Assembly: GCA_965218785.1 (NCBI GenBank)
Contig: OZ244650.1
Location: 1,536,001 to 1,600,000 of the forward strand
Length of the DNA: 64,000 nt
Source of the DNA: Nitrosopumilus sp.
GTDB lineage: Archaea > Thermoproteota > Nitrososphaeria > Nitrososphaerales > Nitrosopumilaceae
Direction: 5' to 3'
Below the pieces are notes generated by a model. It was given only the letters and a program-made list of their open reading frames with translations, ran no database searches and was not told the origin of the DNA. A program made the translations under genes and the position numbers. Of the stretch, positions 26,426-28,124 are shown in pieces (within the stretch, counting starts at the first letter, position 1; each line of letters starts with the position of its first letter).

Positions 26426-27262
26426 TTGTTTTCTATATCTACCCTAGTTGATGTTGTTAGGATTCCTCCAAGCTTGTTTGGAACCACGCTCAAAAAGGCA
26501 GCAGTGAACATTCTCAAAGAAAAATACGAGAGCATGATTAATGCAGATCTGGGATACATCATTATGATTTTGGATGCCAAAGTAGACGAAATGGGAAAAA
26601 TGATTGCAGGTGATGGCGGTACTTTCCACAAGGTTGAATTTGAGGCATTGACGTTTTATCCAAAATTACAGGAAATTGTCCAGGGGGAGATTGTAGACAT
26701 TACGGACTTTGGTGCGTTTGTAAGAATCGGTCCTACTGATGCATTGCTTCATCTGTCACAAGTTATGGATGATTATCTAAAAAGCGATGTAAAATCCGGA
26801 ATGATTATAGCTAATCAAAGCGGCCGGACACTCAGAGTCGGTTCCACGCTTCGTGCAAGAATTACCGCAGTATCATTAGGAAAGGCAGCAACGATGGGCA
26901 AGATAGGAATCACATGCAGACAGCCGTTCCTTGGTGCAGATGAATGGATTGCCGAAGAAATCAAAAAATCAGATGGTGAGGGAGACGGACCGGCAAAGGG
27001 TGACAAGCCGACAAAGGGTGCCGAGCAAAGGGTGACAAACCAGCAAAGGGTGACAAGGGGAAGGCAAGCTAAGATGGCACGGGAAATGGCATGTAGAAAG
27101 TGCAAATGTGTAAACACAGGCAAGGTATGTAGAATATGTAAATCATCAGACTTGACGCCGGATTGGAACGGTATTGTGCTCGTAGTGGATCCAACAAATT
27201 CAGAAATTTCCAAAACTCTGGGCATCACTCAAAAAGGCAAGTATGCCATCAAAGTGACATAA
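26426..27262 (+). CDS. rpoE1: RNA polymerase subunit Rpo7 (RpoE') read in frame into Spt4 (RpoE'')
   Basis: VRIPP..FG, S1 domain DFGAFVRIGP.DALLH; no stop before Spt4 ATG at 27074. Confidence 0.9.
   Translation: MFSISTLVDVVRIPPSLFGTTLKKAAVNILKEKYESMINADLGYIIMILDAKVDEMGKMIAGDGGTFHKVEFEALTFYPKLQEIVQGEIVDITDFGAFVRIGPTDALLHLSQVMDDYLKSDVKSGMIIANQSGRTLRVGSTLRARITAVSLGKAATMGKIGITCRQPFLGADEWIAEEIKKSDGEGDGPAKGDKPTKGAEQRVTNQQRVTRGRQAKMAREMACRKCKCVNTGKVCRICKSSDLTPDWNGIVLVVDPTNSEISKTLGITQKGKYAIKVT
26990..27057 (+). repeat. 18-bp tandem repeat (PAKGDK unit), third copy 4 nt short
   Basis: CCGGCAAAGGGTGACAAG / CCGACAAAGGGTGCCGAG / CAAAGGGTGACAAA / CCAGCAAAGGGTGACAAG. Confidence 0.9.
27074..27262 (+). CDS. 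spt4: Transcription elongation factor Spt4 (RpoE'') moiety
   Basis: MAREMACRKCK...CRIC....DW.G...DP..SEI...LGI...GKYAIKV. Confidence 0.93.
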   Translation: MAREMACRKCKCVNTGKVCRICKSSDLTPDWNGIVLVVDPTNSEISKTLGITQKGKYAIKVT

Positions 27263-27302
27263 AATTTCTAAATCTTTAAAATTGCATTAATATTTTATAA
27301 TT

Positions 27303-28124
27303 ATGTTGCCACGTTTTAATTCCAAAAAGCAATTATCAGAATTTCTTGCCGAAGACATAGGAAAGGGGGATGTAACTGGCGCCCTTTTACCCAAACAGAA
27401 AATTTCAGCTAGAATCATTTCAAGGGAGAACGGCGTTGTTGCAGGTGTAAAGCACGTAAGAGAAATTTTCAGACTAGAGAAATGCAATGCCAGAATCATG
27501 AAAAAAGACGGTTCTAAAATAAGACCAAACCAGGTCGTAATGATCATTACCGGAGACGCACGAAAAATTCTGGCATGTGAGAGAACCGCCCTGAATCTTC
27601 TCAGCAGAATGAGCGGAATTGCAACACAGACAAATCAACTTGCAGGAAAAATTCCAAGCCAGACAAAATTGTATGCCACAAGAAAAACGGCTCCAGGACT
27701 TCGATATTTTGACAAGGAGGCAGTGGAGATAGGAGGAGGTAAAAGGCACAGGCTGCGACTCGATGAGATGGTGATGATCAAGGATAATCATATTGCAGTG
27801 GAGGGTTCATTGTTATCATTAATTAAAAAGGCAAAAAAAAGACACAAAAAATTCGAAGTGGAGGTTGAAAACACTTCAGATGCGATTCTTGCCGCAGAGG
27901 AGGGGGCGGCAATAATCATGCTGGATAATTTTTCGCCATCTCAAATCAAGAGGACAATCAGAATGCTCAAGAATCACAAATTACGAGACAGGGTTATGCT
28001 TGAGGCATCAGGAGGAATAAATTCCAAGAATATCTCAAGGTATGGACAGACAGGCGTAGATATTATCTCAGTAGGCAGTATTACAAATTCAGTCAAAGGA
28101 ATTGATATGAGTCTGGAGACCTAG
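27303..28124 (+). CDS. nadC: Nicotinate-nucleotide diphosphorylase (quinolinate phosphoribosyltransferase)
   Basis: EDIGKGDVT, ERTALN, TRKTAPG, KDNH, LDNF, EASGGI. Confidence 0.97.
   Translation: MLPRFNSKKQLSEFLAEDIGKGDVTGALLPKQKISARIISRENGVVAGVKHVREIFRLEKCNARIMKKDGSKIRPNQVVMIITGDARKILACERTALNLLSRMSGIATQTNQLAGKIPSQTKLYATRKTAPGLRYFDKEAVEIGGGKRHRLRLDEMVMIKDNHIAVEGSLLSLIKKAKKRHKKFEVEVENTSDAILAAEEGAAIIMLDNFSPSQIKRTIRMLKNHKLRDRVMLEASGGINSKNISRYGQTGVDIISVGSITNSVKGIDMSLET

Follow-up and report, generated by a model that had tools for sequence, protein, structure and literature searches.

The open reading frame at 26426..27262 (plus strand, 278 aa, TTG start), in which the RNA polymerase stalk subunit Rpo7 appears to be fused to Spt4, is judged to be an assembly or consensus artefact in a short tandem repeat (with a probability of roughly 0.8), because contigs built from reads of the same organism carry a version that is 14 bases shorter and keeps the two genes separate. 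All positions refer to the window, that is, the whole stretch of 64,000 nucleotides from Nitrosopumilus sp. that was analysed. In the organism, the locus would consist of two ordinary genes, namely an rpo7 ending at the TAA at 27070-72 and a separate spt4 beginning one base later, and the tail of rpo7 would be built from whole, lineage-specific 18-nt units of six residues each. In the consensus, 14 wrong letters (27012-27025) would shift the frame by one and thereby create the 278-aa frame; the likeliest source would be a consensus or polishing error in a long-read assembly, left within a short tandem repeat. The arrangement of stop codon, G, and ATG would suggest that the two genes are translationally coupled.

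The assembled frame and its tandem array

A first-pass annotation of this DNA had proposed that rpo7 is fused in frame to spt4 through a slipped repeat. Each of the features that it described for 26426..27262 is present in the window as assembled sequence, and its description is correct for the assembly; its weak point is the assumption that the letters at 27012-27025 exist in the organism's DNA. Pfam searches with the 278-aa frame return SHS2_Rpb7-N at residues 9-64 (E 2e-15), S1 at residues 79-151 (E 9e-13), and Spt4 at residues 221-278 (E 5e-11), and the organism's own genome matches residues 1-278 without a stop. The Rpo7 (RpoE') core, which bears the SHS2 and S1 domains, occupies 26426..26989 on the plus strand and ends where the repeat tail begins; it scores 57 bits against PF03876 (cut-off 24.8) and 48.9 bits against PF00575 (cut-off 22), and is 92-97% identical to the orthologues of 21 same-genus genomes. 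On the same strand, spt4 (rpoE2; 27074..27262) has its own ATG one base past the rpo7 stop and encodes a 62-aa protein, the product of 27074-27259 matching PF06093 with 47.7 bits (cut-off 25; E 1.6e-12). Archaeal Spt4 is a zinc-finger domain of about 60 aa with four cysteines, and the translation found here shows CRKC...CRIC (the CxxC...CxxC zinc-finger pattern) behind a start, MAREMACRKC, that is kept in congeners. Both rpo7 and spt4 are single-copy in this genome. The 137-aa minus-strand frame lying beneath the locus matches no family and was set aside as a shadow frame.

Between the Rpo7 core and spt4 lies an 18-nt tandem array (26990..27057, plus strand) that encodes the P-[AT]-K-G-D-K tail of Rpo7 and measures 68 nt in the window, with three full units and one unit of 14 nt. 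Tandem Repeats Finder (TRF) reports a period of 18 nt over 26990-27057, with 4.0 copies, 74% matches, and a score of 73. Divided by eye, the array comprises unit 1 at 26990-27007, unit 2 at 27008-27025 (the last six letters of which are deviant), unit 3 at 27026-27039 (14 nt, the short third unit remarked upon at first pass), and unit 4 at 27040-27057 (18 nt); an equally good parse exists, as TRF also reports a 13/14-nt near-duplication at 27007-27034. Set against an array of four whole units, which was the view taken at first pass, the window is 4 nt short. Read in its own frame, unit 4 gives PAKGDKGKAS followed by the stop TAA at 27070-72, a G at 27073, and the spt4 ATG at 27074, so that the out-of-frame stop described earlier is indeed there. 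The tail of the assembled frame reads ...PAKGDKPTKGAEQRVTNQQRVTRGRQAK and then continues into Spt4, the frame-shifted linker of the fused frame being …EQRVTNQQRVTRGRQAK. This linker is simply what the repeat encodes when read out of frame, and no selection is visible in it. The core of the repeat is found at no other place in the genome.

Read-derived contigs across the array

Read data were available as contigs built from reads with 31-letter words (Logan contigs), which were placed on 26600-27500. X1 and X2 derive from one sample, X4 from a second sample of the same study, and X3 from another study. Three runs (X1, X2, and X3) hold the stretch and X4 holds a small part of it, while X5 and X6 contain next to none of the sampled words; between 7 and 12% of the sampled window words are missing from the three holders. 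No RNA run was listed as containing the stretch.

The 14 nt at 27012..27025 (plus strand), which break the rpo7 frame, are missing from the contigs of X1, X2, and X4. In X1, one contig spans 26600-27055 and differs from the window solely in the 14 nt missing at 27012 (depth 151), and a second contig, 27027-27500, is identical to the window; X2 repeats this two-contig pattern at a depth of 129, again with 14 nt missing at 27012. X4 contributes a record of 151 nt at depth 5 (26895-27043) with the same 14-nt gap, although this record has an adapter-like loose end and is essentially the size of a read. All of the depth crossing 27012 lacks the 14 nt, namely 150.8 of 150.8 in X1, 129 of 129 in X2, and 5 of 5 in X4, and a script confirmed that every start position in 27012-27021 is an equivalent placement of the deletion. 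When the 14 nt are removed from the window, the array resolves into three exact 18-nt units and Rpo7 becomes a protein of 210 aa with its stop at TAA 27070-72, after which come the G and the ATG.

Several counts of 31-letter words speak to how these contigs should be read. As 21 words of the 14-nt-shorter version are missing from the window, the shorter contig cannot have arisen by collapsing words of the window, and the reads must truly contain the shorter version. Another 35 words (starts 26991-27025) occur in the window and are missing from the shorter version, and these roughly account for the share of sampled words (7-12%) missing from the three holders. The window-only letters at 27012-27025 occur in no listed contig; the letters that would join the two genes were thus not found in the organism's reads, insofar as these are represented by contigs, which drop rare variants. 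We infer that the letters in the window are erroneous and do not represent a rare allele. The first-pass annotation had itself named reads that restore the frame, with rpo7 ending at TAA 27070-72, as the observation that would overturn a covalent Rpo7-Spt4 fusion, and the contigs of X1, X2, and X4 provide exactly this; its headline claim is therefore not supported, and the mis-assembly of a repeat, which it had ranked as an equally serious explanation, gains their support.

Compared with the window and with the three-unit contig alike, the reads probably contain a greater number of whole repeat units. The 31-mer at 27026-27056 forms a record of its own in three runs and exceeds its flanks in depth by a factor of 2.5 to 4.6: its depth is 700 in X1 (flanks 151 and 112), about 320 in X2 by arithmetic from the contig table (flank 129), and 43 in X3 (flanks 14-17), where a depth of 31 is found for the word that starts one base earlier (27025-27055). 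A depth this high implies additional routes through the array that the three-unit contig does not display. The simplest interpretation is that reads traverse this word repeatedly, in which case extra whole units resembling unit 4 but ending in A would be present in the true array. The number of units (three, four, or more) may differ between cells and strains; since each whole unit amounts to six codons, the frame is kept whatever that number. The contigs of X3, a run with mismatches to the window at 27365 and 27368, break off at 27006 and resume at 27027, and none bridges 27007-27024 cleanly; a single 46-nt record (26977-27020, three mismatches, depth 8) stops short of the deciding letters. 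X1-X3 also contain contigs of related Nitrosopumilus populations that diverge inside rpo7 (loose ends at 26883 and 26968), one of them with a different start to the Rpo7 tail, and the samples are therefore mixed.

Relatives, protein collections, and the quality of the assembly

All 21 same-genus loci that were read have a short Rpo7 tail of the ...EPAKEAKVEAS type (end ...AS) and an spt4 in a separate frame, the stop and the ATG being 1 nt apart in 19, 2 nt apart in another, and immediately adjacent (0 nt) in the remaining one. As stated at first pass, the normal arrangement of rpo7 and spt4 is that of two separate genes side by side. The sequence TAA-G-ATG at 27070-27076 is the junction typical of the genus, which identifies TAA 27070-72 as the ancestral rpo7 stop, as had been proposed: congeners end ...VEAS, stop, 1 nt, ATG, and the TAA at 27070..27072 (plus strand), which is the true rpo7 stop once the 14 nt are omitted, lies at a position homologous to theirs. 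In genes, order, and the stop-1 nt-ATG junction shared with 19 of the 21 congeners, the locus is an archaeal rpoE1 (rpo7)-rpoE2 (spt4) pair. It differs from the ordinary pair in the tail of Rpo7, which is built from repeated 18-nt units, whereas the tail of congeners is one ...PAKEAKVEAS-type end (at the loci inspected, one ...PAKE.K... stretch with no array), and, in the assembly only, in the 14 extra letters that merge the frames.

Comparison of the locus with related genomes, which had been suggested as a check, speaks against the fusion: when 150 genomes of other Nitrosopumilus species were searched, not one of the 143 with a match gave a stop-free match over residues 1-278. In the wider order, none of eight loci from other families is fused (the spt4 pattern being unmatched in L029). 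A search of a 5.8-billion-protein collection with the fused protein returned 5683 matches, the best 120 of which are all Rpo7 alone, with no PF06093 in any; a search of the same collection with the Spt4 part, among proteins of 152-487 aa, gave one match from 13 candidates, which is not an Rpo7 fusion. In these relatives and among the proteins listed, the fusion does not recur. The names attached to the nearest proteins assign this genome to Nitrosopumilus. The exact 35-nt junction (window 27046-27080) had 0 matches in metagenome_contigs and 0 in genome_contigs, and neither yielded a second assembly of the species by means of that junction.

A handful of candidates were examined and rejected along the way. 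P0002 (297 aa), the top match to the fused protein and one with a fusion-like score, is an internal duplication of Rpo7 and has no Spt4; P0122 (282 aa), the match to the Spt4 part, begins with the first ~44 residues of Spt4, continues into unrelated sequence, and has no Rpo7; and a 273-aa open frame in G030 reflects an upstream extension together with a long Ser/Gly/Lys tail. Single matches over residues 1-278 in G140, G015, and G135 each contain a stop between the genes. At these three loci (L171, L172, and L173, respectively), rpo7 and spt4 share a frame with one stop between them (TAA, TAG, and TGA), and the ATG directly follows the stop in L171 and L172 and is separated from it by one codon (GAT) in L173; read-through of the stop would yield a fusion, although nothing suggests that it occurs. 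In the complete congener G018, the rpo7 match (G018:C1:458994-459546) consists of two pieces that overlap, the second of which contains a TGA; this is possibly a frameshift or a pseudogene.

The repeat tail of Rpo7 is the one minor real feature that is left at the locus, a lineage-specific, length-variable repeat of six residues. It resembles the tails of other Nitrosopumilus Rpo7 proteins, which are variable, low-complexity, K/E/A/G-rich C-terminal stretches that in some cases carry internal repeats of their own (P0046, P0113, and P0003; the tail of P0046 has a 13-residue tandem unit), and in the genus, the C-terminus of Rpo7 seems particularly prone to repeat expansion. It differs from them in the sequence of its unit, P-[AT]-K-G-D-K, which was not found in the 12 proteins fetched or at 29 other loci.

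The assembly comprises 2 contigs (1.99 Mb, 97% complete), and its frames were tested by tblastn of the open reading frames of at least 120 aa from the complete congener G012 (1384 frames) against this genome. Matches were obtained for 1163, of which 1042 were covered over more than 90% of their length by a best match in one frame, and 13 rows (11 loci) were flagged because their match is divided between two frames. Two of the flags (r163 and r949) are false alarms in which the congener frame is over-extended into conserved non-coding or tRNA-like DNA, three (r58, r306, and r1268) are less clear, and seven are clear breaks in six conserved genes (r376; r607, with two; r609; r1035; r1147; and r1178, a threonine-synthase-like gene). 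Six of the seven clear breaks fall at single-base runs (G5, C3 twice, T, A3, and T2), where the congener protein implies one or two letters more or fewer. For the control congener G010 (1.2 of its 1.36 Mb), 1031 frames had matches and three were flagged (a tRNA-like over-extension, an apparent shadow frame, and an acidic tandem repeat), of which none or one is real. With at least 7 clear breaks per 1163 against 0-1 per 1031 in the control, indel-type frame breaks are in excess in this assembly and are of the type left by long-read consensus; a long-read origin may be presumed for it. This excess makes it more likely a priori that a consensus error also underlies the odd 14-nt unit, even though the class of error is different.

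The frame breaks other than the present locus lie on G000:C1 near 249.2 kb, 1062.9 kb, 1063.5 kb, 1067.2 kb, 1079.6 kb, 1711.8 kb, and 1966.4 kb. Among them, that in the threonine-synthase-like gene (G000:C1 near 249,215-249,275, outside the window) falls at a stretch of five G, six being implied by the congener, and reflects either an error of the consensus or pseudogenization of a gene that should be needed. Four of the breaks lie within 17 kb at G000:C1 1,062,890-1,079,600, likewise outside the window, namely r607 (two; a gene of the 417-aa class), r609, and r1035, and the less clear r1268 falls in the same cluster, which could be a poorly polished or low-coverage stretch. In the reverse comparison (this genome's own frames against G012), nine rows were flagged, two of which are the present locus (the frame and its opposite-strand shadow); the other seven (o820, o879, o559, o1552, o407, o1444, and o1202) each correspond to two adjacent frames in G012, may represent indel-induced false fusions, genuine differences, or breaks that lie in G012, and are left out of the evidence.

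The probable artefact shares with the indel and repeat-length errors of long-read assemblies, which produce false frameshifts and false fusions, a frame that depends on letters missing from read contigs; it differs from a one-base homopolymer error in being an error of 14 nt in the length of an 18-nt tandem array, the sequencing technology itself being deduced. Several observations weigh against an artefact. The 14-nt difference is unlike the typical single-base long-read error seen elsewhere in the genome, the read graph is complex at the array, and about 99% of the conserved genes are intact, so the overall consensus is not poor.

Alternatives and meaning

That the 68-nt array is a real allele, whether in a minority of the population or fixed in the culture that was assembled, is an unlikely alternative. 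Such an allele would represent a recent, probably neutral-to-harmful frameshift rather than a selected design, and its bearers would produce Rpo7 whose tail is scrambled and joined to Spt4, with free Spt4 arising only via internal initiation at the ATG at 27074. The letters do sit in a near-complete, two-contig assembly (97% complete), and the array evidently varies, given that branching of the read graph is seen at this place in X1, X2, and X3 and that X3 breaks at 27006 and 27027; Rpo7 tails likewise differ widely in length and repeats across the genus (e.g., P0046 and P0113). The fusion need not be lethal, as its linker would comprise ~40 presumably disordered residues, and a minority with the window letters could escape contigs that drop rare variants. 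Were the assembly to come from another culture or time point than X1 and X2, the window allele could be real there. Set against this, both samples with contigs across the site show only the form without the 14 nt, and no contig shown has the window-only letters. Moreover, rpo7 and spt4 are single-copy, so two core transcription genes would be changed at once; none of the 143 matching congeners is fused; and the other indel-type breaks of the assembly look like errors. That part of the population, or the assembled clone, should actually contain a stalk Rpo7 covalently joined to Spt4 by a linker of ~40 residues is held to be slightly less probable still.

The notion of a functional fusion, in which Spt4 (and, via Spt4, Spt5) would be tethered to the RNA polymerase stalk and slippage would switch between fused and unfused states, has the open frame itself and the published proximity of the Spt4/5 and TFE clamp sites to the stalk in its favour (PMC3223566) but is highly improbable, as it faces every objection to a real allele, occurs in no relative, and depends on a linker whose residues simply result from reading the repeat out of frame and bear no mark of selection. 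The toggling proposed at first pass is weak for a further reason: a unit of 18 nt equals six codons, not a length indivisible by three as a phase-variable repeat would require, so whole-unit slippage cannot change the frame and only changes of partial units shift it. The same annotation had stated that Spt4/5 competes with TFE for the RNA polymerase clamp, which is in print: PMC3223566 describes TFE and Spt4/5 as competing for the clamp and places the zinc-ribbon domain of TFE near the stalk. This published competition does not bear on whether the fusion exists.

If true, the fusion would be the first case of an elongation factor covalently tethered to archaeal RNA polymerase and would bear on the exchange of TFE and Spt4/5 at the clamp; if the 68-nt allele were real, it would offer a natural experiment in tethering Spt4/5 to the polymerase. 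The evidence indicates that the Rpo7-Spt4 fusion is a property of the assembly and not a real feature, and the locus is best annotated as two genes, encoding an Rpo7 of the 210-aa class with a repeat tail and a 62-aa Spt4. More generally, the few indel-type frame errors in this assembly can mimic fusions and pseudogenes.

The surroundings of the locus are those of ordinary housekeeping genes, with an Mrp/NUBPL-type Fe-S ATPase upstream (minus strand), nadC downstream, and a TPR protein and nadA (minus strand) also among the neighbours.
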